Positions 4,471 to 31,794 of a stretch of 40,030 bases of DNA are shown here, in pieces. A program made the position numbers and the translations under genes. The notes under the pieces were generated by a model. That model worked only from the letters and a program-made list of their open reading frames with translations. It was not told the origin of the DNA and searched no databases. The stretch is from a virus. The stretch's first letter is position 1. Every line of letters starts with the position of its first letter. The stretch is taken from the IMG/VR virus record IMGVR_UViG_3300045988_064761, positions 1-40,030 of that record; one strand, written 5' to 3'.

Positions 4471-5556
4471 ATGAAACGAACAAACACGGCAAAATGGATT
4501 GACAGCGCGAACCGCTGGCAGATAAACGTGCAGAAAGACGGAGTGCGCAAAACCTTTACCAGCGCCAAACCGGGGCGCACAGGGCAGCGGGAAGCCAACA
4601 AAAAAGCAGATGAATGGTTGGATAAAGGCGTAAAGACGGAACGCATTAAGGTCTCTGACGCATGGGAACGGTTGTTACAGCAGAAAAGACTTGTGTCTGA
4701 TGCAGAATACAAAAACATGGCATCGTTTGGCCGCGCCCATTTGCTGCCAGCCATCGGAAATAAGTTAATAAAATCCGTTACGGAACAGGATTTTCAACAA
4801 ATTATAGATTATTCGTTTCGCCACCCGCAGGGAATGAGCAAAGAGCCATTATCCAAAAAGACGTTACAGAACTATGCCAACTACTGTAAGCAGTTCGTCA
4901 ATTTTTGCCGAAAATCAAAATGGACAACGCTTGAGCTTGATGAGTTACAGATTCCGGCAGCGTCCAGAAAAAAAGGAAAGAACGTGCTGACAGTTGAAGC
5001 GCTGAACACGTTGCTAAAAGTGGATACGACCATCATGCGCGGGAAATCTGTTCACGATGAATACATAAATTACTATAGGTTCCAAGTGCTAACAGGTATG
5101 CGCCCCGGGGAAATGCGAGGGCTACAATGGGAAGACGTTGACGGGAATTTGTGCAGGTTGAAGCAGGCTATCAATGCACACGGTCAAATCACGCAGGGAA
5201 AAAACGAAAACGCATTGCGCACGGTAGTGCTATCCAGACGCGCAGTGGACGTGCTGGAAGCTCAGAAAGCCGTGACTGGAAAGCAGACGTACATCTTCCC
5301 CATGGCATCCATGCACACCTACTATCACCGCTGGCAGCGCTATCAGCGTTCTAATGACATGCCGGAGCTGAGTCTTTACGAACTGCGCCACACGTTTGTG
5401 AGTATTGCAAAGGAGTTGCCGACTGGCGAGTTAAAGCAGCTAGTCGGGCATAGCGAGGATATGGACACCTACGGCACATACTCCCACTACATCGCTGGAG
5501 ATGACGAACGGACAGCCAAAAACCTACAAGAAATCTTTGATAGATTGGTGGACTAA
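4471..5556 (+). CDS. int: Tyrosine recombinase / phage integrase
   Basis: Contains LTGMRPGEMRGLQWEDV, LYELRHTFVS and LVGHSEDMDTYGTYSHY, the R..HxxR..H..Y signature. Adjacent to attP. Confidence 0.92.
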   Translation: MKRTNTAKWIDSANRWQINVQKDGVRKTFTSAKPGRTGQREANKKADEWLDKGVKTERIKVSDAWERLLQQKRLVSDAEYKNMASFGRAHLLPAIGNKLIKSVTEQDFQQIIDYSFRHPQGMSKEPLSKKTLQNYANYCKQFVNFCRKSKWTTLELDELQIPAASRKKGKNVLTVEALNTLLKVDTTIMRGKSVHDEYINYYRFQVLTGMRPGEMRGLQWEDVDGNLCRLKQAINAHGQITQGKNENALRTVVLSRRAVDVLEAQKAVTGKQTYIFPMASMHTYYHRWQRYQRSNDMPELSLYELRHTFVSIAKELPTGELKQLVGHSEDMDTYGTYSHYIAGDDERTAKNLQEIFDRLVD

Positions 5557-5580
5557 AAAGTACACACTAAAAGTACACAC
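5556..5580 (+). repeat. attP arm-type sites: two direct copies of aaaagtacacac
   Basis: AGTACAC at 5559-5565 and 5572-5578. The same heptamer recurs on the other side of the core. Confidence 0.6.
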
Positions 5581-5681
5581 TTTTTTTCTTAAATGTATGA
5601 AATAATAGAAAAAATATGTGACAAAGCAAAAAATATAGCAATATACCGCTATATTTTTAATCACTAAAAGCATTGTGTATA

Positions 5682-5705
5682 GTTCGAGTCCTGTCACCTC
5701 GACCA
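5682..5705 (+). other. attP core: 3' end of a tRNA gene (T-loop, T-stem 3' strand, acceptor 3' strand, A-CCA)
   Basis: GTTCGAGTCCTGTCACCTCGACCA. The sequence 5' of it does not complete a T-stem or a cloverleaf, so this is a fragment and not a gene. Confidence 0.65.
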
Positions 5706-5712
5706 CAACAAA

Positions 5713-5750
5713 TGCCGTAGATTCGTTTAAATCTACGGCATTTTCTTTTT
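5713..5750 (+). terminator. Rho-independent terminator immediately after the tRNA fragment
   Basis: Perfect 10-bp stem tgccgtagat/atctacggca, 8-nt loop, then TTTTCTTTTT. Confidence 0.8.
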
Positions 5751-5752
5751 CA

Positions 5753-5773
5753 AGTACACGTTTTAGTACACAC
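5753..5773 (+). repeat. attP arm-type sites (P' side): AGTACAC at 5753-5759 and 5765-5771
   Basis: Same heptamer and same orientation as 5559/5572. An inverted copy (gtgtac) lies near 5805. Confidence 0.55.
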
Positions 5774-5777
5774 TTAC

Positions 5778-5915
5778 TTATTTTCTCTGCAAACTGTGTA
5801 CCAAATCATTATACACATCCGGACGTGCTTCTTTCAGCGCATCCATAAACTCGTCCAGCACACGCCACACTCGCCCGGTATCGGCCTTTTTTACAATCTC
5901 CAAAAATTCACTCAT
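5778..5915 (-). CDS. Cargo operon gene H: 45-aa helical protein, paralogous to the C-terminus of gene G
   Basis: ATG 5915 overlaps the stop of G. Protein MSEFLEIVKKADTGRVWRVLDEFMDALKEARPDVYNDLVHSLQRK resembles G's ALNVLDELMSALYVANPKVYNGVMRKLERL. Confidence 0.5.
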   Translation of the reverse strand: MSEFLEIVKKADTGRVWRVLDEFMDALKEARPDVYNDLVHSLQRK

Positions 5916-6261
5916 CCTGTAAACGCTCCAATTTCCGCATTACGCCATTATAAACTTTAGGGTTTGCTACATACAAGGCCGACATAAGCTCATCCAGCAC
6001 GTTCAGCGCTGCTGCGATGTCTACGTTTGACACAGCCCGTAAAAAGTCACTGCTGCCAACAGCAGCCCTTGTAGACGGCTCTGCCGCTTCGTAATAGCGC
6101 ACAGGCTCTTGCAGTTTTGCTTTCTGCGGAAAATGGGACGCATCTGCAAGACGCTGATTTTTCACAACATACAGCGCTGCCAAATTTTTAACTCTGGTCA
6201 TGGTGAGTTCGCTGTTTTCGATTTCGGCTATAGCGCCGTCAATCTCTCGCACGTCAACCAT
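5908..6261 (-). CDS. Cargo operon gene G: hypothetical protein (117 aa)
   Basis: SD GAGGTG upstream. Tightly linked to F and H. Confidence 0.7.
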   Translation of the reverse strand: MVDVREIDGAIAEIENSELTMTRVKNLAALYVVKNQRLADASHFPQKAKLQEPVRYYEAAEPSTRAAVGSSDFLRAVSNVDIAAALNVLDELMSALYVANPKVYNGVMRKLERLQDE

Positions 6262-6278
6262 AGCCCTTACACCTCACT

Positions 6279-6674
6279 TTAACCGTTTCGCATCGTGTCA
6301 ATGCAGCGCTGGATGACTTCCCTGTCTTTGCTGTCAGCCCCGCGCATAATATCTTCCATGCGGGAAATCAGTGAATCGCGCCCATCGTCCATGCTGTAGT
6401 GCCCGCGCACATAATGCGAACCGCGCCGCGCATAGCTGCTGCCGCGTCCATAATTGCCGCGCATATTGGCACTCCAATCACCATCGCGGCTGTAATCCTC
6501 ATCGCGGCTGTAACCGTCATCTTCCAGCATGACAATTTTGTCGATATTTTTGATAGTGTCAGTCAGCTTGTGAACAGTTTCCAAGTCACCGGCAGACATT
6601 TCACCTTTCTTTCCGATTTCGTCCAGTTCTGCGCACAGCATGTCTTTCAAGTCATACAAAACTCTTTTACTCAT
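6279..6674 (-). CDS. Cargo operon gene F: helical ends flanking an R/G/Y/S/D-rich low-complexity centre (131 aa)
   Basis: SD AAAGGAG upstream. Centre reads DDGYSRDEDYSRDGDWSANMRGNYGRGSSYARRGSHYVRGHYSMDDGRD. Confidence 0.75.
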   Translation of the reverse strand: MSKRVLYDLKDMLCAELDEIGKKGEMSAGDLETVHKLTDTIKNIDKIVMLEDDGYSRDEDYSRDGDWSANMRGNYGRGSSYARRGSHYVRGHYSMDDGRDSLISRMEDIMRGADSKDREVIQRCIDTMRNG

Positions 6675-6686
6675 GGTTTACTCCTT

Positions 6687-7109
6687 TCAGCTCACTCTCT
6701 CGACCACAAAGTTTGCGTTCGCAAACAAAACGGTTTGTGTGCTTGTATTTTCGGCGGCAACGGTCAGGCAGCAGCCGCGCGGAACTTCAACAAAAGACGT
6801 CACATAGATATTAAAGAAGTTTTCTACTGCTGCCGGTGTCACGGTTGCAGTCGCACTGTTCAGCGGTTCACCGTTGATAGCAAGCGCCGCCGTAATAGCT
6901 TCCACTGTGCCGCCTGTAGGGATAGCAACGTTTGCACCGAAGCCCACTTTGAAACGCGCTTTGCACTGGTTCGTAATGCCGCGCAGCGTAACAATACCGG
7001 CGCCTTCTCTGTGTACGACACAGCCCTTGCCCGCTACTGCCGTTTCCGTCAGTGGCACGTTCTGGCCTGCTGCCACGCTCACGGTATTGGCGTTTGTAAA
7101 TTCAGCCAT
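6687..7109 (-). CDS. Cargo operon gene E: beta-rich 140-aa protein (possible jelly-roll, BclA-CTD/C1q-like pattern)
   Basis: ATG 7109 follows AAAGGAATGA. Protein MAEFTNANTVSVAAGQNVPL...GIVTLRG...ARFKVGFGANV...INGEPL...GCCLTVAAEN...FVVERVS. The ORF-track start at 7187 lies upstream of a terminator hairpin. Confidence 0.7.
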   Translation of the reverse strand: MAEFTNANTVSVAAGQNVPLTETAVAGKGCVVHREGAGIVTLRGITNQCKARFKVGFGANVAIPTGGTVEAITAALAINGEPLNSATATVTPAAVENFFNIYVTSFVEVPRGCCLTVAAENTSTQTVLFANANFVVERVS

Positions 7110-7123
7110 AAAATCATTCCTTT

Positions 7124-7157
7124 CAAAAAAATAGTGGCGGGACGATTGCCCCGCCAC
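7124..7157 (-). terminator. Intrinsic terminator inside the cargo operon (between genes D and E)
   Basis: Minus strand reads GTGGCGGG-gcaatcgt-CCCGCCAC followed by TATTTTTTTG. An 8-bp G+C-rich stem. Confidence 0.7.
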
Positions 7158-7220
7158 ATTTTGCATCATCGGCACGGGGCCGAACATGTCGGATGTCCCG
7201 ACAAGTTGCCGTATTCGGTT

Positions 7221-8000
7221 TTAGCAGCCGCAGCCGTTGCAGCCGCCGCAATTCCCGTACTGATACGGCGCCGGAACCTGGAAAGCCGGAACAGGGCGGG
7301 GGTTGTAATAGGCGAGCTGCCCACTCATATAGGCTTTCAGCGTTTCATTCTGCGCAGCCTGACTTGCGGCAAGCTGTGCGGCAAAAAGCTGCTGGTTCTG
7401 CTCGGCAATTTTGGCATCCTTGGCCTCAATGCGCTGCGCCGTCAGTGCGTCAAGCACAGCGCGGGCGTTCGCGTTCTGGTTTTCGATGATATCCCGAGTG
7501 CCGTTCTGAATGGTCTGGCGCGTGTCGCAAGCCTGCGTAGCGAGGTTGTAGTTTACGCCCTGGATAGCCTCGCGGGTCTCGCAGCAGCAATTTGCCTGCT
7601 GCATCTGCATGGCAAAGAGCTGCTGCATAAATGCGGCCTGCTGGTTTGCGCGGCTGATTTCAGCCGACATAAAGCCGTTGCTCATGCCCTGCTGTACGCC
7701 GTTGATAAGCTGCGCCTGCTGATAAAAGCCATCGCACAAGCCATTGTTCACGTTGTCAATTTTGCGCTCAATGTTGGCAAAATCCGACGTAAGAACGTAA
7801 CCGTCAACCACCCCGGCGCCGTTGCCAGCACCAAAGCCGCCATTGCCGCCCCAGTTACCGCCCCAGCCGCAGAAAACGAACAGGAAAAGGATAATGATCC
7901 ACCACGCACCGTCACCGCCGAAGCCCCAGCCGTTGCCGTTACCGCTGTTCGCGGGCTGAACAGGCATCGTCATTACAGTGCCATCCGAAGATAAACTCAT
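7221..8000 (-). CDS. Cargo operon gene D: Gly/Trp-rich TM segment, Q/N-rich coiled region, Cys-rich C-terminus (259 aa)
   Basis: SD GGGAGA upstream. Contains GNGNGWGFGGDGAWWIIILFLFVFCGWGGNWGGNGGFG, QQANCCCETRE, and C-terminal YQYGNCGGCNGCGC. Confidence 0.8.
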   Translation of the reverse strand: MSLSSDGTVMTMPVQPANSGNGNGWGFGGDGAWWIIILFLFVFCGWGGNWGGNGGFGAGNGAGVVDGYVLTSDFANIERKIDNVNNGLCDGFYQQAQLINGVQQGMSNGFMSAEISRANQQAAFMQQLFAMQMQQANCCCETREAIQGVNYNLATQACDTRQTIQNGTRDIIENQNANARAVLDALTAQRIEAKDAKIAEQNQQLFAAQLAASQAAQNETLKAYMSGQLAYYNPRPVPAFQVPAPYQYGNCGGCNGCGC

Positions 8001-8056
8001 AATTGTTCTCCCTTCAAATTTTCAATTTTTATGTTCACCGTGCGCACGGTTTGAAC

Positions 8057-8275
8057 CTATTTTAAAAAGCTCTGAAACTGCTGCGCCATAGCTTGCAGCT
8101 GGTTTAACTGTTGCTGGCTCATCTTGCCCGATTGCAACAGTTTTTCTACTTCTTGTTTGGGGTCGCCTTGAAAGTTATTGCGGAACTGCTGAAACTGCTG
8201 CATCATCTGCTGGAATTGACCCATAGCGCCGGGCGTACGCCCACCGCCTAAAACGTTAAACAGAGGATTTGGCAT
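8057..8275 (-). CDS. Cargo operon gene C: 72-aa Gln-rich protein
   Basis: AAGGAG lies inside the 3' end of gene B (20-nt overlap). Protein MPNPLFNVLGGGRTPGAMGQFQQMMQQFQQFRNNFQG...QQLNQLQAMAQQFQSFLK. Confidence 0.65.
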   Translation of the reverse strand: MPNPLFNVLGGGRTPGAMGQFQQMMQQFQQFRNNFQGDPKQEVEKLLQSGKMSQQQLNQLQAMAQQFQSFLK

Positions 8276-8726
8276 TTTCGTTCTCCTTTTTCTTTGTCAT
8301 CGGTTTGTCTGCCGTCAGCGCGTCAAAACGGGCTGCCAGCGCGTCAAACTCTGCACGGGTGACAAATTCTCCGGCTTGCGCTTGCGCGGCCTGTGTGTGC
8401 TGTTTCTGTGCCGCTGTGCGTTCCGAATAATCGAAGATGCGCAACGGCTGCGGCATACCGCTGGCATCCACTGTTTTGATATAGAACGAGCTTTTCTCGC
8501 TGTCCATCAAAAGCACGCTGTTCCCCGGCGCACAAAGATACGACTTTGCCGCTTCTTCTCCCTGCACCCAAATAATGGGCGCAGTCTGCTGTGCAGTCTG
8601 TTGCTGCTGCGGATATGCCGCTTGTCGAAGCTGTGCAAGCTGGTCGGGCATGGCCGACGGCATCTGCTGCCCCATCGGGTAATATCCCGGCGCAAATCCG
8701 GGCTGATACGGTACGCCAAACGCCAT
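8256..8726 (-). CDS. Cargo operon gene B: P/Q-rich N-terminus, beta core and Ala-rich helix (156 aa)
   Basis: ATG 8726 follows AAAGGA. Core reads IIWVQGEEAAKSYLCAPGNSVLLMDSEKSSFYIKTVDASGMPQPLRIFDYSE. Confidence 0.7.
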   Translation of the reverse strand: MAFGVPYQPGFAPGYYPMGQQMPSAMPDQLAQLRQAAYPQQQQTAQQTAPIIWVQGEEAAKSYLCAPGNSVLLMDSEKSSFYIKTVDASGMPQPLRIFDYSERTAAQKQHTQAAQAQAGEFVTRAEFDALAARFDALTADKPMTKKKENENAKSSV

Positions 8727-8732
8727 AGTCAA

Positions 8733-9107
8733 TCATCCTTTCTGCCAGTAGTACAGCGGCACTTCATCTCCGCTGTCCCATGTATCCAGCCAATCCCCAT
8801 TTTGCACGCACACAACATGCGTAGCCATTGCCAAAATATACGTGCCGTCCGAGTGGTCTTTTGCAAACTGCGCCACTGTGTAACAATCCGGGCAGCTGTT
8901 TGGCAATGTGTAGCGCTTCCACCCACATCGACGAAGATAACTGCCCCAGACATAGTTTGCAGACGGCATATCATGCAGTTCAAATCCTGCCAGCACCAGC
9001 GCCGCATATACAGCCGCCCACGATTGATGCGTTGCGGCTGCAATGGATCTGACGGTACAATCGCCGACGCGCTTTTGTTCTGGATTTAGGTTTAATTCTC
9101 TGTACAT
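8733..9107 (-). CDS. Cargo operon gene A: 124-aa protein with a Cys-His-Asp arrangement (possible papain-like/C39-like peptidase)
   Basis: SD GAGGA upstream. Contains RVGDCTVRSIAAA ... AMATHVVCVQNGDWLDTWD. Confidence 0.7.
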   Translation of the reverse strand: MYRELNLNPEQKRVGDCTVRSIAAATHQSWAAVYAALVLAGFELHDMPSANYVWGSYLRRCGWKRYTLPNSCPDCYTVAQFAKDHSDGTYILAMATHVVCVQNGDWLDTWDSGDEVPLYYWQKG

Positions 9108-9164
9108 GGTTTTATCCTCTATATTTATTGTAATATTTTACACATTTTCGCGTGCGCCACATCT

Positions 9165-9186
9165 GCGCCAACTTTACGCCAACTTT
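9165..9186. repeat. Two tandem 11-bp repeats ([g/a]cgccaacttt) in the divergent cargo control region
   Basis: gcgccaacttt at 9165-9175 and acgccaacttt at 9176-9186. Confidence 0.8.
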
Positions 9187-9210
9187 TTTATAAAAATCCC
9201 GCAATTCCAC

Positions 9211-9239
9211 TTGACATTACTACGCTAGCGTAGTATAAT
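9211..9239 (+). promoter_or_regulatory. Perfect consensus sigma-70 promoter with a 14-bp palindrome in the spacer
   Basis: TTGACA (9211-9216), 17 nt, TATAAT (9234-9239). The spacer contains CTACGCTAGCGTAG (9220-9233), a perfect palindrome. Confidence 0.75.
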
Positions 9240-9283
9240 ATAGACACAGTAAGAAATAGCCACTTACACGAAAGGAAATAAAA

Positions 9284-9643
9284 ATGAGTAAGCTCGATTT
9301 TAGCGACGCCATCTATAAACAGACCCACGTCCGCATTGACAACAACGCCCTCATCGACGACATCCGCAAGGCCATCAGCACCAGCGAAATGGAGAACGAC
9401 GAGCGCCAGCGCATCACCGGCCAGGATGATGTCATGGAGCGCTGGGAGTACCTCGTCGACTTCCACCGGGACGAGATTCTCGACGACGACGGCGAACTTC
9501 TGCAGGTCACTGACACCGTGAAGGTCATCGAGATCACTATTTACCCGCGCAGCCGTAACTCCGTCTTTGGCCGCGCCGGATTCCCTGTCAATGAGGACAT
9601 CTTCGTTGAACTTCCCGCCGACGCCGACAGCTTTGAAATCTAA
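9284..9643 (+). CDS. Acidic 119-aa protein, function unknown (cargo cassette gene 1)
   Basis: SD AAAGGAAA upstream, 45 nt downstream of the consensus promoter. D/E-rich sequence. Confidence 0.75.
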   Translation: MSKLDFSDAIYKQTHVRIDNNALIDDIRKAISTSEMENDERQRITGQDDVMERWEYLVDFHRDEILDDDGELLQVTDTVKVIEITIYPRSRNSVFGRAGFPVNEDIFVELPADADSFEI

Positions 9644-9656
9644 AAGGAGGCCATCT

Positions 9657-10145
9657 ATGGAAATTTCCCTAAAGGAATACGCCGCCCGGCACAGCCGCGC
9701 CGCGGCGACTGTCCGCCAAAAGGCCATCCGTGGCGGATTTAAGACCGCTCGCCGCGTTGGCCGTGACTGGCTCATTGATGAAGATGAACCCTACATTGAC
9801 GAGCGCTTTGCCATGCCTTCCGCGCCGCCGGACCTGTGGCTTTTGACAAACGGCAGGCACAGCCGCACCATCAGCGACGCCGGTGCCGTCAAAATCGGCA
9901 GTGACGAATTCTCCGCTCTTATTCCCACCGGCGCGGGTGACGGCGAATCCGCCTACTGTATCTATACGCGGGCAGAGCTGGACGCCGTTGGCATCAACAC
10001 CGCCGACCTTCACTACTTCACCCTTGTTTCCGGCAGCTTCAACATCTACGACTACGACTGCGGGTGCGCCGTATCGGAGACTGTAGAAGGAGTCTTCAGC
10101 GTTTTCTATGCGGACGGCATCGTCTTTTTCGTAAAAGCCGAATAA
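9657..10145 (+). CDS. 162-aa protein: N-terminal excisionase/MerR-like HTH plus unknown C-terminal domain (cargo cassette gene 2)
   Basis: AAAGGAGG lies 6 nt upstream of ATG 9657. N-terminus MEISLKEYAARHSRAAATVRQKAIRGGFKTARRVGRDWLIDEDE. Confidence 0.7.
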   Translation: MEISLKEYAARHSRAAATVRQKAIRGGFKTARRVGRDWLIDEDEPYIDERFAMPSAPPDLWLLTNGRHSRTISDAGAVKIGSDEFSALIPTGAGDGESAYCIYTRAELDAVGINTADLHYFTLVSGSFNIYDYDCGCAVSETVEGVFSVFYADGIVFFVKAE

Positions 10146-10200
10146 AATAAAAAAGCGCCCCTCCCGTGTCCACCATGGACACAAGGAGGGGCGCTTTTTA
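10146..10200. terminator. Bidirectional intrinsic terminator
   Basis: 11-bp stem agcgcccctcc/ggaggggcgct plus inner 7-bp stem gtgtcca/tggacac. An A-run lies upstream and a T-run downstream. It ends both convergent units. Confidence 0.85.
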
Positions 10201-10395
10201 TTCAGCCTTCAACTTCCCAACAATCGCCTTTACCCGTCTGTTCACCGTCCGCTCACTCAAATTCAGCTCTGCGGCAATTTCCGCATTCCCAAAGCCGCGC
10301 CGCTTCAAATCCAGCACCGCCTTTTCTTCATCCGTAAGCAGAAAGCACAATTTTTCATACGTCGCCGAATCCAAGCAAAAGCGGTATCGGCACAC
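10198..10395 (-). CDS. Small sigma-70 region-4 / LuxR-type HTH protein
   Basis: Contains LTDEEKAVLDLKRRGFGNAEIAAELNLSERTVNRRVKAIVGKLK. There is no in-frame ATG (GTG 10395 or an internal TTG). Confidence 0.6.
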   Translation of the reverse strand: MCRYRFCLDSATYEKLCFLLTDEEKAVLDLKRRGFGNAEIAAELNLSERTVNRRVKAIVGKLKAE

Positions 10396-10404
10396 ACGCG
10401 GGCC

Positions 10405-10701
10405 TTACTCGGATTTATTTTTCTGCTTTACGCACTGGTTGGCGTAGACCGCCCCCGCCGCGCACAGAACGCCTTGAATGATGGCGGTGAAAACCGCCAT
10501 GGCCGCGTCCTGCCCGCCGCCGATGGGCGACGTCGCCAAAACATACAGCGCCGCCAGCACAATGCCCACCGCGGCCAGCACCGCCGGGATGAGCTTGTCC
10601 GCCACCGCCGTGCTGGTTTTCAGGCAGTATCCCACGAAAATCAGCGCCGGAATCAGCACCAGCAGCTCCGGTTTAATGTAGTTCATGTAGTCGATGTTCA
10701 T
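10405..10701 (-). CDS. Holin (phiLC3/Hol44-like)
   Basis: Three hydrophobic segments. KPELLVLIPALIFVGYCLK..IPAVLAAVGIVLAALYVLA..FTAIIQGVLCAAGAVYANQCVKQ. Sits downstream of the endolysin. Confidence 0.65.
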   Translation of the reverse strand: MNIDYMNYIKPELLVLIPALIFVGYCLKTSTAVADKLIPAVLAAVGIVLAALYVLATSPIGGGQDAAMAVFTAIIQGVLCAAGAVYANQCVKQKNKSE

Positions 10702-10716
10702 AATAAAATCCCTTTC

Positions 10717-11037
10717 TTAATGAATAGGCAGTACCCGCGCCCGGTTGTACAGTTCTGTGCCTGTTCCGTTACCGCCCAGCGCATGGTAGCTCTTGTACAG
10801 ATATTCCAGATTTTTAAGGCCCGCCGTATCGATCCAGCCCTGCGCGATATAAAACGTGCAGACCTGATACAGCCTGTCGTGCAGAATTGCCAGCATCCCA
10901 GCCTTGATGGCGGCTTTTTCTTCTGCGTCGTCCTTGATTTTTTTCGCCAGCTGCCTATAAGCAACCAGCAATCCAGCGGCCAGTACGCCAAAAGCCCACT
11001 CGACCCAGTATTTTATAATCCACTCCGGCACGCTCAA
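10717..11037 (-). CDS. Membrane protein of the lysis cassette (holin/antiholin partner candidate)
   Basis: N-terminal TM segment WVEWAFGVLAAGLLVAY. Overlaps the endolysin stop. Confidence 0.45.
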   Translation of the reverse strand: MSVPEWIIKYWVEWAFGVLAAGLLVAYRQLAKKIKDDAEEKAAIKAGMLAILHDRLYQVCTFYIAQGWIDTAGLKNLEYLYKSYHALGGNGTGTELYNRARVLPIH

Positions 11038-12176
11038 CCCTCCACGTATTTTGCATGGTACGCCCTGTCGTCATCGAGATTGTACTTCTTAGCAACGGCG
11101 TAGAACTCCATAGCGGCGGCGTTCGGCAGGACAACGTGATCCAGCCAGACCTCCTGATGCGTCGGCGCAGCGGGCTTGTCCTCTTTGATGGCGGCATCAT
11201 ACCGCGTCAGGTTGAACTGCTTCACGACAGCCAGCAAGCTCGACGTGTAGGTCGGGCTGGTTGCCCAGCCATCAGCCCGGATGTACTCGCACGCCTTGTT
11301 GATGTCGGTACAGCCGACCAGATTGGAATAGCGCGGCATGGTCGTCAGCTTCTTGATGTAGTCCTCTACACAGGCGGCCATCGTATTGTAGGCGCGGAAA
11401 CCCGCCGTGATGGTGATGTACTTGCTGCCGTCCCACTCCTTCGTGGCCTTGTTGTACACTCTGCCGCTCCAATTGCTGGCCTTGATGCCAAACAGGTTGT
11501 TTGCCTGCACGGCCAGTTCGCTTGTGCCGTAGGCGCTTTCCAAACAGGCTTGTGCAATGCACAGCGACGGCAGAAGATGCGCGTTCAGGCAGCGGCTCTG
11601 GCACTTCTCGACCATGACGTCAATGAACGTCTGCTCCTGCGTCTTGGCTGGCGCAGCGTCGGCCACGTCGCCCTTCAAGCGCTTCGTGACCTGTGCTGCA
11701 ATGTCGGGGAACTTGCTCTTGAGATAGGGGCCGGGGCAGGCGGTAGCCGCGTAGAAGCAGTGCATCGTGAGCGAGCCGTTCTTGTCGCCGGTGTAGGTCA
11801 GTTCCTTGATGCCGTTGCGGCGGCAAATGTCGGTGCAAAGGTCGAGCAGGGCGCCATACGCCTTGTCGCTGACGTGCCAGTCCGGTGCGCCGCTGTCGTT
11901 AGCGACTTCGATAGTAATGGCCCGCTGGTCGTTCCACGGGCTGGAACTGCACCACGACCTGTCCGCCTCGTGGCAGAACAGACCGATACGCCCGCTGGAT
12001 TCGATGGCGTAGTTTGCGCTCATCTGACGTGATGGCCTACTGACAAGAGCGCCGAAAGATTCAAGCGTCATGTTGCCAGCCATGTGATGAACGGTAATCT
12101 TGCTGATGGGCTGGCTGCGGGGCCGGTTGCAGTTTGGGCTGATGGCCGTGTAAACGGCCAGTGCAGAATCACTCAT
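11034..12176 (-). CDS. Endolysin: N-acetylmuramoyl-L-alanine amidase plus glucosaminidase domains
   Basis: Amidase_2-like region ITVHHMAGN...ANYAIESSGRIG...AATACPG. Glucosaminidase-like region AQACLESAYGTSELAVQANNLFGIKA. Confidence 0.85.
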   Translation of the reverse strand: MSDSALAVYTAISPNCNRPRSQPISKITVHHMAGNMTLESFGALVSRPSRQMSANYAIESSGRIGLFCHEADRSWCSSSPWNDQRAITIEVANDSGAPDWHVSDKAYGALLDLCTDICRRNGIKELTYTGDKNGSLTMHCFYAATACPGPYLKSKFPDIAAQVTKRLKGDVADAAPAKTQEQTFIDVMVEKCQSRCLNAHLLPSLCIAQACLESAYGTSELAVQANNLFGIKASNWSGRVYNKATKEWDGSKYITITAGFRAYNTMAACVEDYIKKLTTMPRYSNLVGCTDINKACEYIRADGWATSPTYTSSLLAVVKQFNLTRYDAAIKEDKPAAPTHQEVWLDHVVLPNAAAMEFYAVAKKYNLDDDRAYHAKYVEG

Positions 12177-12557: not shown

Positions 12558-14615
12558 TCATGTTTGCGATGCTACTGCATCTTCCAAATCGGTGATCCGT
12601 TTAATGGGGTCTGCTCGTCCCGTCACAGTCGCGCTATCGGCATCGGTCAGCACGGTGTTCACTCCCGCAAGGGCGGGCAACGGCTGTGCGCCTGTCGCGG
12701 TGAAGGGGATGGGCTCTGCCAGCTTGTAAGCAATTTGTACGGGCGTGCCAGCTGCGTTCTGGGCGGCGAGGTAGGCTTTCCAGTTGTCCGCGTTATCCGG
12801 GATGGTGTCGCCCCAGCGTACTCGGATGCACTGCCACACAATAGCGCATCCTTTTACGGTATTGTTGTTAGATACATCGGCATGTGGGTAATGGCTGCAT
12901 ACATCATTGCCTTTGGTGGGAGCGGCATTGATGGTTCCCTGGATTCTTCCCGTTGTGTAGTACCAATCGGATTTATCTTCAAGAAATTTTCCAAATACCG
13001 TCCAATCCTCTGTGCCATCCAGTGTAATCAGCCGCCAAGCCCGCTTGCCCTCTCCACTCACCGCGTCCACCTCACCGCCATACACGGTTTCAGGCAGGGT
13101 CAGGGTGTTGGTCTGCCCGTTGTATGGTGCGTAGGTGGAGGGAGTAGTGGTGCCTTCAACAACTTCAATTTGGAATTTGAAGTTGTTGAATACTGTGCCA
13201 TTTCGCCAGCATTGCAGCATAAAAACAAGCTCGGTTTCTACCAGCGCAACGTCTCTTGCAATATACACATTAAGGTTTGTGCTGTTTGTATCACCACGGA
13301 AGTAATGATTATAATCCGTAGAGAACAGCGCATAGGCAAAAGTAATGCCGTCACCGCTTCCAAGAGAGGCACTGCCGCCCACCTTTTTGACATACATGGT
13401 GTAGGTTTTTCCCGCGACCCAATGCAGCCGACACGTTCCAATCGTGATATTGCCTTTTCCAGCAAGTGTTCCGTTTAACGTGATATTTTTTTCTGCGTCT
13501 ACTGCTATTTTAATGTCTGAAGAGGAATCTTCTGTGCTTAAAAACTCAATGACATTCTCCCCACACCGATCCACCGTCACGCTGTCACGTCCCTTGATGG
13601 GACGGATGTTTTCCGGTGACGGCGTTCCTGTGCCCTCCTGCATGGGTTCCCAGCTGGCCTTTACCCCCAGCGGGTATCCCGCCACGGGGTAGCACACAAC
13701 AGGGTTGCCGCTTTCTTCAAGCGGCGGGCAGAGCATATCAATGATGTGCTTGCTGCTCCACGGCGCATCCTCGCTCACCGCCGCATCATCAATCTGTACG
13801 CCGTCCTTTCCGGCAGGCCCCTCCGGGCCAACCTCTCCCTGCGGCCCCTGCTCACCGCGCTCACCCTGCGGCCCCTGCTCACCGCGCTCACCCTGCGGGC
13901 CAGTATCACCCCTGGGGCCAACCGGGCCAGTTTCGCCAACAGGCCCCTGCGCGCCGGTATCGCCCTTCTCGCCTTGTACACCCTGAACGCCCTGCTCACC
14001 TTGGGGGCCGCTCGGGCCAGTTGCACCCGTTGCCCCGGTAGGGCCTTGAACTCCCTTTTCTCCTTGCGGCCCCTGCGGGCCTACGGGGCCTCGCGGGCCA
14101 GTATCGCCATTGTCGCCTTTGTCGCCTTTGTCGCCTTTGGCTCCATCCTTGCCGTTAAATTTGCCGTTAGCCGCATCATTCCGCAAGTCATCAGCCGCGC
14201 TCTTTGCTTCCGCGCTGTTCTTTTCTGCGTTAAGTGCAGCCTGCAAAACCTGCGTGGCAAGCGATTCGCTGGGTTTAAACGGCACATCTCCACCAACGTT
14301 TCCGCGTGTAATTACGTTGTATCCCTGCGTTTTTGTGATGCGCTGTACACCATTGGCAACGCCGCAATACACGATAGTGCCCGTACCCTCATTGGCGGTT
14401 GCTTCGGCAGGCACATCAATCAGGCCGTTTTCCGGCAAACGGATTTCAACGGGTTTGCCCTTCGGCGGATTAAACGTTGCCGTTACAGCAAGCCCGCTCC
14501 ACGTATCGTCAAGGGTCACATGCAGCTGCTCGATACCGTAACTGCCAAAAGTGCCAAGCGATAAGTTGCCGGGCCTAACGCTGTATCCTTTCAGCTGTAC
14601 TTCATGCAATGCCAT
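12558..14615 (-). CDS. Tail fibre with a collagen-like (G-X-Y) region
   Basis: ATG 14615 follows GGAGGG. About 39 G-X-Y triplets are encoded at 13800-14153. Confidence 0.85.
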
Positions 14616-14704
14616 TACACGCCCTCCAATCTGGCTTTCGCCGCATCCATCCACTTTTCAGGCACATCTTCAAGTGTCATGCGGCACACATAAAATTGCA
14701 CCAT
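14615..14704 (-). CDS. 29-aa CD1375/XkdX-like small tail-region protein
   Basis: GGGAGGTG lies 7 nt upstream of ATG 14704. Protein MVQFYVCRMTLEDVPEKWMDAAKARLEGV. TAATG overlap with the fibre gene. Confidence 0.45.
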   Translation of the reverse strand: MVQFYVCRMTLEDVPEKWMDAAKARLEGV

Positions 14705-23031: not shown

Positions 23032-23964
23032 TTACTGTACTGCCTTGGCAGTTTTTGCGCTCCGGGTTTCTGCGGGCGTAATGGTGGCGACGGCGATACC
23101 GTCCAGGTACTCAGCCCACAGCTTCATGCCCATAAGAGCGTACATATCGCCAGTTGCGCGGCTGTAGTCGCCGTCAACATGCACACCAATCAGGTTGGTT
23201 TCGCCCTCGACGGTATAGTTCAGGCCCAGCTTGGCGAAATCGCTGTCGGCGGGGTCGATGTAGTACAGGTCGATGTTCTCAACAGGGACGGCAATAACCT
23301 TGTTGCGGGCGATGTACTTTGCGGGCAGTAGGAACAGGGTGGAATAACCCATGAAATTCTGAACATAGGTCAGGCCGAAGGCGGTCTGCGTGGTGATTTC
23401 CTTGTCGCCCAGATAGCCGTAGAAGTCCAGAATGTTGGCAAAGCCGACAACCTCGGTAACATCACGATCCATGCTGGCGAACTTGTCCAGCACATTGCCC
23501 TTTGCCAGAGCAAGACCCTGCTGCCAAGTGGTAGCAGCTACATCCAGAGAGCCAGTGTTCAGGAAGGTGTAGAAGTCGCCCAGAACCTTGTTCTGCAGGG
23601 CGACAAGGAACGCCTCGTCGGTCTTTTCAACGGCAACGTCTGCGCCGTACTTGGCGACAGCCTCAACGGACACGCTCTTAGCATACTTGGCAATCTCAAT
23701 GTCGCCGTAGGTTTTGGGCGCGACCTTCATCTTGGTCAGCGGGATCTCATCGCCCTCAGCAACGGACGTACCGCCAGCCAGAGTGCCGTCAACAGCGGCC
23801 TCATAGGAGACCAGCTTTGTGCCGGGGGCCTTGCGGATGGGGCGCATAATGCCCATGATGGTGCGCAGCGCTTCCCAGTTCTTGCCAAAGCGAGTGACAA
23901 AGTCAACCTCGCGGGCGTTGACAGTAATCTGGGCAGCGGTAGTCAGGTTAGTTTTTGCAGCCAT
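23032..23964 (-). CDS. Major capsid protein
   Basis: 310 aa, directly after the scaffold gene, strong SD (AAAGGAG). Confidence 0.8.
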   Translation of the reverse strand: MAAKTNLTTAAQITVNAREVDFVTRFGKNWEALRTIMGIMRPIRKAPGTKLVSYEAAVDGTLAGGTSVAEGDEIPLTKMKVAPKTYGDIEIAKYAKSVSVEAVAKYGADVAVEKTDEAFLVALQNKVLGDFYTFLNTGSLDVAATTWQQGLALAKGNVLDKFASMDRDVTEVVGFANILDFYGYLGDKEITTQTAFGLTYVQNFMGYSTLFLLPAKYIARNKVIAVPVENIDLYYIDPADSDFAKLGLNYTVEGETNLIGVHVDGDYSRATGDMYALMGMKLWAEYLDGIAVATITPAETRSAKTAKAVQ

Positions 23965-29543: not shown

Positions 29544-30827
29544 TTACACGAAAATGCTCTTGTATCTGGTTTCGGCGGTGTCTCCCGCCTTGTTCGCTGT
29601 GCTTTCCATCGCATAACGCACAGCGTCAATGTGATGGTTGTTGATGTCTGGATACCCCTCCAAAACTTCCCCCGTTTTCGCATCTCGCTCGTACTCGTAC
29701 TCGCTAAACTCTTTTGCAGTGTCCGGACAACGTTCCGGGTCAATGACAATAGCTTCCAGCATTTGCAGCCACTTTGTGCCGTATCGAACCGATTTCGGCC
29801 CCTTGCGGGCTGGGAACGTCTTTACGCCGTACTTGTTATAGTCCGCAATAGATTTTGGCTCGGCGCTATCCGCGCAGATTTTGTCCTCACGCGTCAGCCC
29901 TCTATCCAAAAGCAGTTGCGCGGTGTCCCTATTGCTGGTTCTGCGCCGCGTTAGCTCGTCAAAGATGTACAGCGTGCTCCGCGCTGCGTCATAGTGCATC
30001 GCATTGTATGCCCATGGGTCAGGATACCAGCCCCAGTCAACGCCGCGCTTGATTCTGTCAAATGTTTTCAACTGCTCGTCTGTGATTGGTTGAATTTTCA
30101 GGTTTTCGAATACCGCTGTGCCGCTTCCGACAACCTCGCCCAGATACTCGTGTCGGTAGGCCGTTTCGTTTGTGCGCTGCAAGTATTCAGCATCGGCAAG
30201 AAACCGTTCTCCGAGCCATTCTGCGGGCGTTGTTTTATAGGTGGAATGATGTATCAGCTTTCCAGACCGCGCTTTCAGCGCGTACCCGTTTGCCCAGTTC
30301 CGCGCCATTGCTGGCGGGTTGAAACTCTTGAACGTAATGAACCAGTCGCCGCCGCGCAAGCAGGACTGCTCAACGTTTCGGATTTGCTCTTCACCGTCAA
30401 ACTGGTCAAGTTCTTCAAACCAGCAGATGCCGATATAACCAAACGGCACTTTGATTGACTTTACCTTGCCGGGGTCATCAACGCCGAAAAAAAGCACCTT
30501 TTGCCCAGTTGGCAAATAGGTGCATTCCATAGGGCTGACAGTGCAACGAAAACGGTCGTGCAAACCAAGCTCATTGATTGCCCAGACAATCTGCGCATAA
30601 ACGCTTGTGCGCAGTGTGTTGCCGACTTTTCGGAACACTGCTGCGTGGCATTGCGGATGTGCTCTCAGCTGCAAAATGACTTCAACGCCAATAAAGCTTG
30701 ACTTTGTGCTGCCACGTCCGCCTTTTGCCACAAACTCTTGAACTTTACCATCCTCAATGTCCCAGAATGGCTTATAAAATGCTGGCGAAATAATATCCTT
30801 GATATGTTTATTCTCTTGGCACATCAT
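29544..30827 (-). CDS. terL: Terminase large subunit (PBSX/terminase_3-type)
   Basis: Walker A-like KGGRGSTKSS; contains ICWFEELDQF. Nuclease half lies at the C-terminus. Confidence 0.92.
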   Translation of the reverse strand: MMCQENKHIKDIISPAFYKPFWDIEDGKVQEFVAKGGRGSTKSSFIGVEVILQLRAHPQCHAAVFRKVGNTLRTSVYAQIVWAINELGLHDRFRCTVSPMECTYLPTGQKVLFFGVDDPGKVKSIKVPFGYIGICWFEELDQFDGEEQIRNVEQSCLRGGDWFITFKSFNPPAMARNWANGYALKARSGKLIHHSTYKTTPAEWLGERFLADAEYLQRTNETAYRHEYLGEVVGSGTAVFENLKIQPITDEQLKTFDRIKRGVDWGWYPDPWAYNAMHYDAARSTLYIFDELTRRRTSNRDTAQLLLDRGLTREDKICADSAEPKSIADYNKYGVKTFPARKGPKSVRYGTKWLQMLEAIVIDPERCPDTAKEFSEYEYERDAKTGEVLEGYPDINNHHIDAVRYAMESTANKAGDTAETRYKSIFV

Positions 30828-31720: not shown

Positions 31721-31794
31721 TGGCACGGGTGGAAGGTCTTGACCCCTCATCTTGCGGTTTTGGAGACCGCAGTTCTGCATTGAACTACACCCAT
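31721..31794 (-). tRNA. tRNA-Trp (anticodon CCA), non-canonical D and T loops, CCA encoded
   Basis: Hand-folded cloverleaf: ATGGGTG TA GTTC AATGCA GAAC T GCGGT CTCCAAA ACCGC AAGAT GAGGG GTCAAGA CCTTC CACCCGT G CCA. Confidence 0.6.

Follow-up and report, generated by a model that had tools for sequence, protein, structure and literature searches.

A conserved gene cassette of Firmicutes phages with a predicted TNF/C1q-like jelly-roll protein and a structured RNA

Gene content and distribution of the cassette

We analyzed a stretch of 40,030 nucleotides (nt) of the IMG/VR virus record IMGVR_UViG_3300045988_064761 (hereafter the window, to which coordinates refer unless another locus is named), in which eight minus-strand genes, A to H, form one co-oriented, operon-like block between positions 9107 and 5778. 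The window encodes a temperate siphovirus, with genes for the large terminase subunit (TerL), portal, major capsid protein (MCP), tape measure protein (TMP), Dit/Tal, a collagen-like fibre, an endolysin, a holin and an integrase. The block had been noticed earlier from the sequence alone, and this original prediction described it as an undescribed, tightly packed set of lysogenic cargo genes with Shine-Dalgarno (SD) sites. A listing of the open reading frames (ORFs) over positions 4500–11000, used to check the eight genes, recovered all of them at the predicted coordinates: A (8733–9107; 124 aa), B (8256–8726 from an ATG, 156 aa, or 158 aa from a TTG at 8732), C (8057–8275; 72 aa), D (7221–8000; 259 aa), E (6687–7109; 140 aa, with a mechanical ORF that reaches 7187), F (6279–6674; 131 aa), G (5908–6261; 117 aa) and H (5778–5915; 45 aa), the last gene of the cassette. 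The intergenic gaps from A to H are +6, −20, +56, +111, +12, +17 and −8 nt, and an SD-like motif precedes all eight starts.

The products of A to F matched PHROG families (A, phrog_3754 at 6e-28; B, phrog_21718 at 3e-32; C, phrog_22984 at 4e-23; D, phrog_16490 at 1e-52; E, phrog_20016 at 4e-57; F, phrog_28802 at 5e-9), all of which are annotated as being of unknown function, and the source names in protein collections were all "hypothetical protein". Scans of A–H with Pfam, NCBIfam and PADLOC gave only sub-threshold noise, and searches of PDB sequences with A, B, D, E, F and G, as single sequences or profiles, yielded no meaningful match; for G, PHROG gave no match either. Thus, with the libraries used (Pfam, NCBIfam, PHROG and PADLOC), we agree with the original prediction that none of the proteins belongs to a named family with a role in the virion, lysis, replication or defence. 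The cassette also appears to be undescribed, since literature searches turned up no description of it and the families are catalogued only as unknowns. Nevertheless, A–H are real genes rather than chance ORFs, given the PHROG matches, the thousands of clusters to which the proteins belong (at 90% identity, at least 8,000 for the D family and 7,032 for E) and the occurrence of exact sequences on many contigs (854 for E and at least 1,000 for H).

A pattern scan of GTDB genomes identified 46 loci, mostly from Oscillospiraceae, with the genera Oscillibacter, Lawsonibacter, Pseudoflavonifractor, Acutalibacter, Butyricicoccus and Ruminococcus represented. The order A-B-C-D-E-F-G was intact in about 30 of these loci, at which the flanking lysin, holin, fibre and integrase had no detectable homology to those of the window. 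In IMG/VR, at least 583 contigs carried a relative of E, and the gene order was kept in all of the 80 closest. The seven-gene order was preserved from Oscillospiraceae to Butyrivibrio phages at protein identities of 35–45% and in two genomic positions, and D and E were the only members retained at the most divergent loci; D accompanied E at the most divergent of the loci that still include the upstream region. Few gene sets without an explanation are as common in Firmicutes phages of the human gut and rumen. The conservation of the cassette far exceeds that of the surrounding capsid or lysis genes, and it is mobile as a unit between two late-region positions. NCBI names proteins 91–100% identical to E as Gemmiger formicilis, which is probably the host, and the Clostridia-like host originally predicted is supported by the names of the relatives (Gemmiger/Oscillospiraceae).

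In many cassettes, including that of Butyrivibrio phage Ceridwen, an extra ORF of about 45–60 aa with the motif RLIAAG...A...W...G.D..LE.Y, which we call Z, lies ahead of A (locus L001, 11357–11506; L004, L005, L026, L028 and L032; L048, about 6920–7070); it is absent in the window. Two cassettes are interrupted by endonuclease/HNH-like ORFs, that of Dulem virus 33 between C and D (L001, 9752–10303) and that of Ceridwen between E and F (L048, 9518–10312); these ORFs look like homing-endonuclease invasions of a conserved target.

Features of the proteins and of the D–E junction

E is the most conserved protein of the cassette, with invariant cysteine residues at C30, C49 and C113–C114 (a GCC pair). 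An AlphaFold2 model of E, built on an alignment of 45 sequences covering two clades (predicted local distance difference test, pLDDT, of 84), has 10 strands arranged in a TNF/C1q-like jelly roll. A Foldseek search against PDB with this model returned the C-terminal domains (CTDs) of F-BclA (9h38) and BclA (3twi/1wck), and ExsFA/BxpB (7r1m/9h3d/8d02), with TM-scores of 0.63–0.73, a probability of 1.0 and E-values of 2e-4 to 2e-3 at sequence identities of 6–16%. In BFVD, the closest matches were small uncharacterised gut-phage proteins (TM-scores of 0.73–0.81) and collagen/C1q-like giant-virus proteins. The Pfam models BclA_C, C1q and TNF, as well as NCBIfam, did not match E. We therefore assign the predicted structure confidently to the TNF/C1q-like jelly-roll class at the level of the fold only, and it is at this level that the original suggestion of a BclA-CTD-like jelly roll was right. 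Among phages, TNF-like domains are known from a capsid cement protein and from the tail tip, where the authors proposed a receptor-binding role (PMC13517437).

D is composed of 11% Q, 10% N, 13% G and 4% C. A conserved N-terminal peptide is followed by an uncharged hydrophobic segment of about 14 residues flanked by Gly and Trp, by a long Q/N-rich region, apparently helical, with an invariant CCC and other cysteine residues, and by a Cys/Gly-rich C-terminal tail. The invariant residues are C138–C140, S213, Q214, Q217, N218 and C257 (alignment A5), and the conserved motifs are NGxCDGFY, CCCxT/NR, NTRDIIDNQN, LAASQAAQN and PxPAY. A Pfam scan of 30 members of the D family gave nothing. The NCBIfam model for YjcZ-like proteins did not match D at E-values of up to 1, so that the identification of D as a YjcZ-like sporulation peptide is not supported. 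The 90%-identity cluster of one D homologue (P0002) also lists enterobacterial HycG/NuoB-family proteins; these entries almost certainly result from an artefact of clustering or look-up.

Although B, C, F and G are conserved, no library tried revealed any feature in them. In B, the N-terminus is P/Q-rich and the tail rich in Lys and Glu, with a conserved beta-rich core and a short helix between them; the core carries the motif WVxGE...LxD...YxK..D.sG.P, in which W53, L73, D75, G90 and P92 are invariant (alignment A4). C contains 25% Gln and is kept in all cassettes. F (15% D, 11% R, 10% G and 9% S) has helical N- and C-terminal segments around an RG/YS/D-rich low-complexity centre made up of RGHYSRD repeats of variable length (alignment A6). 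Residue counts thus bore out the compositions originally given for C, D and F. G (alignment A7) looks helical, and its C-terminal 45 residues are paralogous to the whole of H (44% identity, E = 8e-11), which accounts for the motif that the original prediction had seen in both proteins; H was found only in the closest relatives. F and G are not related to each other (hhalign probability of 0.6%).

The family of A comprises 1,191 representatives at 50% identity, and in an alignment made from a search of representatives the residues N8, P9, D16, C17, R20, A21, H97, G104, D108 and D111 were kept, giving a GDC...H...D layout (C17, H97, D108 and D111). The AlphaFold2 model of A (pLDDT of 96.9) is a small alpha+beta protein in which the nearly invariant Cys17 opens a helix (17–26) that packs on the beta sheet, and H97, D108 and D111, at least 90% conserved, lie on or beside strands. 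The cysteine motifs noted originally in A, D and E are thus all present and conserved among homologues. Foldseek returned nothing significant in PDB with the A model (the top match being Josephin-2, with an E-value of 0.44 and a TM-score of 0.47; Tae4 and TssM were also listed), the A profile retrieved nothing from PDB sequences, and no Pfam family, C39, C39_2 and C70 included, matched A or 62 members of its family. Hence, of the papain/C39-like character originally suggested for A, the conserved Cys/His/Asp layout on an alpha+beta fold stood, but membership of the C39 or papain families was supported neither by sequence models nor by significant structural matches. It is nonetheless a reasonable inference from the model that A is a putative papain-like thiol hydrolase.

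Homologues of A also stand alone, without B–G, in Bacillus phages of the Tsamsa/Kirov type, in Geobacillus phage GBK2 and in Lak megaphages. The "putative peptidase" genes of phrog_3754, Kirov gp050 and GBK2 gp35, belong to this set. These stand-alone genes resemble A in their identity to it (36–40%, E-values of 1e-17 to 1e-21), equal length and conserved Cys/His/Asp residues, but they are located in early or accessory regions and B–G are not alongside; in GBK2, the homologue lies in the early region ahead of RecE/RecT. The occurrence of A homologues alone in unrelated phages weakens the original view of A as the cassette's own processing enzyme.

Between D and E, directly ahead of the E SD site, the minus strand carries a structured RNA (7107–7220) of three hairpins, the third of which has a GC-rich stem followed by a U-run and is terminator-like. 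Over 22 sequences and 21 base pairs, 96.3% of the pair cells were canonical and 15 of the 21 pairs showed compensatory changes; none of 500 shuffles reached the observed values, and slid controls gave at most 53% pairing. The covariance model of this element (R1) had one match per locus, always at the D–E junction (E-values of 1e-7 to 1e-25); this applied to the two genomic configurations alike and to Dulem virus 39. No match was obtained in Ceridwen or in the divergent loci of the L046 type described below, where D and E nearly abut. A scan of positions 5500–10500 with Rfam revealed no credible family, and none matching this RNA. A leader-peptide attenuator was considered but is not supported, since the short ORF that begins at a conserved ATG/TTG after hairpin 1 varies in frame and length. 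As the element is confined to the D–E junction and only D and E are kept at the most divergent loci, D, the RNA and E constitute the conserved core of the cassette. The ATG that ends hairpin 1 is in frame with E in the window (7110–7187, minus strand), giving a possible extended E of 166 aa, which some gene callers predict (cluster members of 166/167 aa); the frame is not kept at other loci.

Genomic position and control regions

The original prediction placed the cassette outside the late operon, in the slot typical of lysogenic-conversion genes. In the window, A is separated from the last gene of the lysis block, a 65-aa helix-turn-helix (HTH) gene of the LuxR/GerE type (10198–10395, minus strand; Pfam GerE, 1.8e-10, 40.7 bits against a cut-off of 23.5; PHROG sigma/HTH families also match), by a moron-like insert on the plus strand (9211–10145) that is not part of the cassette. 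This insert has a promoter, TTGACA-17-TATAAT at 9211–9239, that agrees with the consensus at 12 of 12 positions, and two overlapping ORFs (9284–9643 and 9567–10145; 119 and 192 aa) without PHROG, Pfam or PADLOC matches. It is present in only 12 of the 41 close IMG/VR relatives with the HTH gene; in the other 29 the HTH gene abuts A, and an HTH homologue also lies directly upstream of A in loci L011–13, L019/20 and L036. The separation of the cassette from the late operon in the window is therefore due to a secondary insertion, and its placement outside that operon is not sustained. A long hairpin follows the insert (about 10137–10206).

The region upstream of A (9108–9190, minus strand), read from the sequence, is a candidate activator-dependent promoter, with three TGGCG repeats at 11-nt spacing and −10-like boxes (TAAAAT/TACAAT) about 23–35 nt ahead of the ATG; no consensus sigma-70 promoter for the cassette was seen in the window, only these −10-like boxes. 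In close relatives (L055–L093), the 134-nt spacer between the HTH gene and A contains two tandem terminator-like hairpins, then about 35 nt, with a conserved TACAAT about 24 nt ahead of the A ATG. Since the hairpins lie just upstream of A, expression would require read-through of the terminators or an activator, and this arrangement fits such control better than a constitutive promoter in the lysogen. The adjacent LuxR/GerE-type HTH protein is a candidate for the activator.

At the other end, H is followed by a terminator hairpin (5710–5743; 14 bp, with T/A runs on both sides) that serves both the cassette and the convergent integrase gene (4471–5556, plus strand), and then by an attP-like region (5557–5775) with AGTACACAC direct repeats on both sides (about 5560–5585 and 5752–5775), in agreement with the position next to attP that had been predicted. 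Repeated GTACAC motifs occur between the integrase gene and H, and a stretch at about 5683–5708 resembles the 3′ end of a tRNA, with its T-arm, acceptor and CCA, which suggests integration into a tRNA gene.

Other carriers have the cassette in other surroundings. Butyrivibrio phage Ceridwen is an isolated, plaque-forming phage for which only a lytic cycle has been seen and which its authors considered probably virulent (PMC7372960). In its genome, a complete A–G set directly follows the lysin, a small transmembrane protein and a 73-aa HTH protein; every gene has the same orientation, and the annotation includes no integrase. Three loci from metagenome-assembled genomes of the Bacilli type (L046, L043 and L037) have a holin gene followed by B′, C′, D, E and F′, with B, C and F divergent, and the cassette converges on genes for a DnaE-type DNA polymerase III alpha subunit, NrdD/NrdG and dUTPase, indicating a phage with its own replication genes; no integrase was found within 20 kb of these loci. 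In Dulem virus 35, MT835516 and MT835997, the cassette, or D–E with C and F, is located between TerL/portal and scaffold/MCP, and coordinates alone point to the same head-cluster position in MT839484, MT839772 and MT835739; in these phages, about 2 kb separate E from the major capsid gene downstream.

At 0.51–0.57, the GC content of the cassette matches that of the late genes, as against 0.41–0.45 in the lysogeny region. Its orientation is without exception that of the late genes, opposed to the integrase, on which it converges. Taken together, position, GC content, orientation, Ceridwen and the DnaE-encoding phages make late expression in the lytic cycle the most economical reading. The integrase-less Ceridwen, the DnaE/NrdD phages and the head-cluster positions accordingly weaken the interpretation as lysogenic-conversion cargo, and come close to what the original prediction had named as refuting it, homologues that prove to be conserved virion proteins of strictly lytic phages. 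The suggested link with spores fared unevenly: the fold of E is near to that of exosporium proteins, but D does not match the YjcZ model, and neither Gemmiger formicilis nor Butyrivibrio fibrisolvens is known to form spores. The earlier framing of the locus as lysogen cargo with a spore-coat analogy and a dedicated peptidase is probably wrong.

Directly after F′ in the three Bacilli-type loci, there is a small HExxH protein of the M78/IrrE-like type (L046, 10990–11313; L043, 10988–11377; L037, 7307–7621, scoring 25.9 bits against a cut-off of 22), and no homologue of A was seen at these loci. This metallopeptidase was considered as a replacement for A, but it lies at the module boundary and was not counted.

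Possible function and alternative explanations

We tentatively propose, with a probability of about 0.4, that A–H constitute an accessory late module that is autonomous, has D and E as its structural core and is exchanged horizontally among Firmicutes phages of the gut and rumen. Expression of the cassette would accompany that of the late genes in the lytic cycle, and it would not be lysogenic cargo. D may be tethered through its uncharged, Gly/Trp-flanked segment to the cell membrane or to a hydrophobic socket, from which it would project a long Q/N-rich helical stalk bearing Cys clusters. E would be a TNF/C1q-like trimer, as its fold relatives are, and might cap D or dock onto it by the anchor-stalk-knob logic of BxpB/ExsFA and BclA, the two proteins together making up an anchored stalk-and-knob or lattice assembly. 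The hairpin/terminator RNA between their genes may set the D:E ratio or stabilise the E message. The Q-rich or RG/YS-rich proteins B, C and F and the small, apparently helical G and H could be assembly partners or chaperones, and A, as a putative Cys-His-Asp hydrolase, a separable enzymatic add-on. Such an assembly could be located on the virion surface or, in the infected cell, on the inside of the membrane. A cytoplasmic C-terminal domain of D would be in keeping with its many conserved cysteine residues and with the acidic, uncharged flanks of its anchor, and the head-cluster position and the precedents for TNF folds would suit a virion appendage.

The MCPs of several carriers are homologous (window versus Ceridwen, 35% identity; window versus Dulem virus 35, 55%), and the same MCP family was found in at least six of the eight complete or near-complete phage records bearing E. 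Nevertheless, several observations weigh against the proposed module. The identities of E and MCP do not track one another (MT835551: E 80%, MCP 38%; Dulem virus 35: E 35%, MCP 55%), and two phages with close MCPs, Flavonifractor phage Chenonceau (MCP 67%) and Dorea phage DO134P1, gave no match to E or A. A collagen-repeat ORF is located upstream in only about 8 of the 18 loci with 10 kb of upstream sequence. Most genomes have the cassette beside attP/int, the classic position of a moron, bracketed by terminators, and the cassette could have a −10-only promoter of its own. In Dulem virus 39, which lacks the MCP family of the window, D–E lie beside the integrase and far from the late genes. Ceridwen may have arisen recently from a temperate phage by loss of the integrase, and a hydrophobic segment combined with Gly/Gln/Asn low complexity is unusual for virion proteins. 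The mismatch between E and MCP argues against a capsid-specific decoration role, and we do not favour E as an MCP-specific decoration protein: although these phages have an MCP family in common, the identities vary independently and the phages with close MCPs gave no E match. E as the anchor of the collagen-like fibre was rejected, there being no strict link between the two. Judging by these sequence comparisons, the cassette is an accessory element, the exchange of which does not depend on the capsid.

The alternatives differ in how they deal with these positions. If the cassette were lysogenic-conversion cargo, its products would form a prophage-expressed, possibly cross-linked surface or envelope structure altering the surface, adhesion or phage sensitivity of the lysogen. 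In favour of this view are its location, with the lysis genes on one side and attP/int on the other, in the window, Dulem virus 33 and the 80 IMG/VR contigs closest to the window, the terminators on both sides, a possible promoter of its own with TGGCG boxes, the membrane-anchor-like segment of D, a fold of E common to exosporium surface proteins and the D–E pair adjoining the integrase in Dulem virus 39. We nonetheless consider this explanation unlikely, because the complete set is present in the integrase-less, plaque-forming Ceridwen, the cassette occurs in phages encoding DnaE/NrdD and inside the head-gene cluster of several others, its composition is typical of late genes, signal peptides are not evident in B, C, E, F and G, it is the separate insert on the plus strand, with its consensus promoter, that genuinely resembles a moron, and the hosts are not known to form spores. 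A role in lysis or egress, in which a membrane-tethered cytoplasmic D–E complex would time or complete lysis or block superinfection or re-adsorption to debris, agrees with the location directly after holin/endolysin/XhlA-like genes in three backbones (the window, Ceridwen and the L046/L043/L037 type), and the acidic, uncharged-flank N-terminus of D may be compatible with an N-out/C-in insertion that would keep the cysteines cytoplasmic. However, the head-cluster position has no lysis genes nearby, the library scans showed no similarity to holins, antiholins, spanins or Sie proteins, and seven or eight genes would be many for a lysis accessory, so this role seems quite unlikely.

Other carriers of A bear on the possibility of a host-takeover or anti-defence set, possibly packaged and injected, in which A, as a thiol hydrolase, would attack some target in the host and the other proteins would be delivery or inhibitory factors. 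A homologues alone in early or accessory regions (GBK2, Kirov/Tsamsa and Lak megaphages), deubiquitinases and the Tae4 amidase as weak structural neighbours of A, and the exchange of an accessory cassette independently of the capsid are all in keeping with it; but the structural matches of A are not significant (E-values of at least 0.4), no PADLOC or anti-defence family was matched, the most conserved proteins, D and E, look structural rather than enzymatic, and a late-gene position would be unusual unless the products were packaged. We regard such a set as highly improbable. It is also conceivable that there is no system at all and that unrelated small accessory genes are hitch-hiking together, since A occurs independently, some loci keep D–E alone, and the block is interrupted by homing-endonuclease-like ORFs in Dulem virus 33 and Ceridwen; the conservation of a seven-gene order at 35–45% identity in two genomic positions and of a covarying RNA fixed at the D–E junction makes this scarcely credible.

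Among the known systems closest to the proposed late module is the hair-like BclA/BxpB(ExsFA) nap on the exosporium of the Bacillus cereus group. E shares the jelly-roll fold and is close in size to BxpB/ExsFA and to the BclA CTD, and the cassette, with its Cys-rich and low-complexity proteins, candidate stalk (D) and candidate peptidase (A), echoes the logic of anchor, stalk, knob and N-terminal processing. However, E has no sequence similarity to these proteins (6–16% identity, no Pfam BclA_C match) and no collagen repeat, D is Q/N-rich and apparently helical rather than collagenous, the cassette lacks basal-layer proteins of the CotY/ExsY type, and the hosts of its phages (Gemmiger and Butyrivibrio) are not known to sporulate. 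The cement protein of Helicobacter phage KHP30 (7dn2) and the TNF-like Tal domain are, like E, small TNF-superfamily modules among late genes (PMC13517437), but 7dn2 is not among the top 50 Foldseek matches of E, and, unlike single-gene decoration proteins, E is always accompanied by D and usually by five more genes. The morons of Firmicutes siphoviruses are similar in their position, as seen in the window and its closest relatives, in being bracketed by terminators and in being accessory; they differ in comprising one or two genes rather than seven or eight co-evolving ones, and the cassette is found in integrase-less phages and head clusters, has a late-like GC content and lacks a consensus sigma-70 promoter. 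The darA operon of phage P1 is a late operon beside lysis determinants that encodes head-internal accessory proteins, the products of which are non-essential. The cassette would resemble it as a multi-gene accessory late operon adjoining lysis genes.

The cassette would thus be a late module of phages, accessory or structural, built on a TNF-like trimer, with a modest chance of something more unusual. One such reading, very doubtful when all its parts are taken together, is that phages of strictly anaerobic gut Firmicutes build an exosporium-like, self-assembling structure during lytic growth. E trimers would serve as BxpB-like docking platforms and D as a stalk held by its anchor. A cross-linked or condensate-like matrix would arise from the Cys clusters of both proteins, the Gln-rich B and C and the RG/YS-rich F, and A would mature this matrix as a papain-fold peptidase or transglutaminase. 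The structure would coat virions or cell remnants and so protect or target the progeny, and the D–E leader RNA would be a new cis-regulator of subunit stoichiometry.

Whichever reading applies, the cassette travels with a conserved RNA of its own, and its function, once known, would annotate seven PHROG-level unknowns together. It could reveal a new late-cycle function, be it a virion appendage, lysis control, or the protection or targeting of progeny, and this is directly testable with a cultured carrier, Butyrivibrio phage Ceridwen on B. fibrisolvens DSM 3071.

The remaining landmarks of the window lie upstream of the cassette on the minus strand: the holin (10405–10701), the endolysin (11034–12176), the collagen-like fibre (12558–14654), the MCP (23032–23964) and TerL (29544–30827); the portal, a MuF-like protein, TMP, Dit and Tal are also encoded on this strand. 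A tRNA-Trp (CCA) gene is located at 31721–31794 (minus strand), upstream of the terminase genes.

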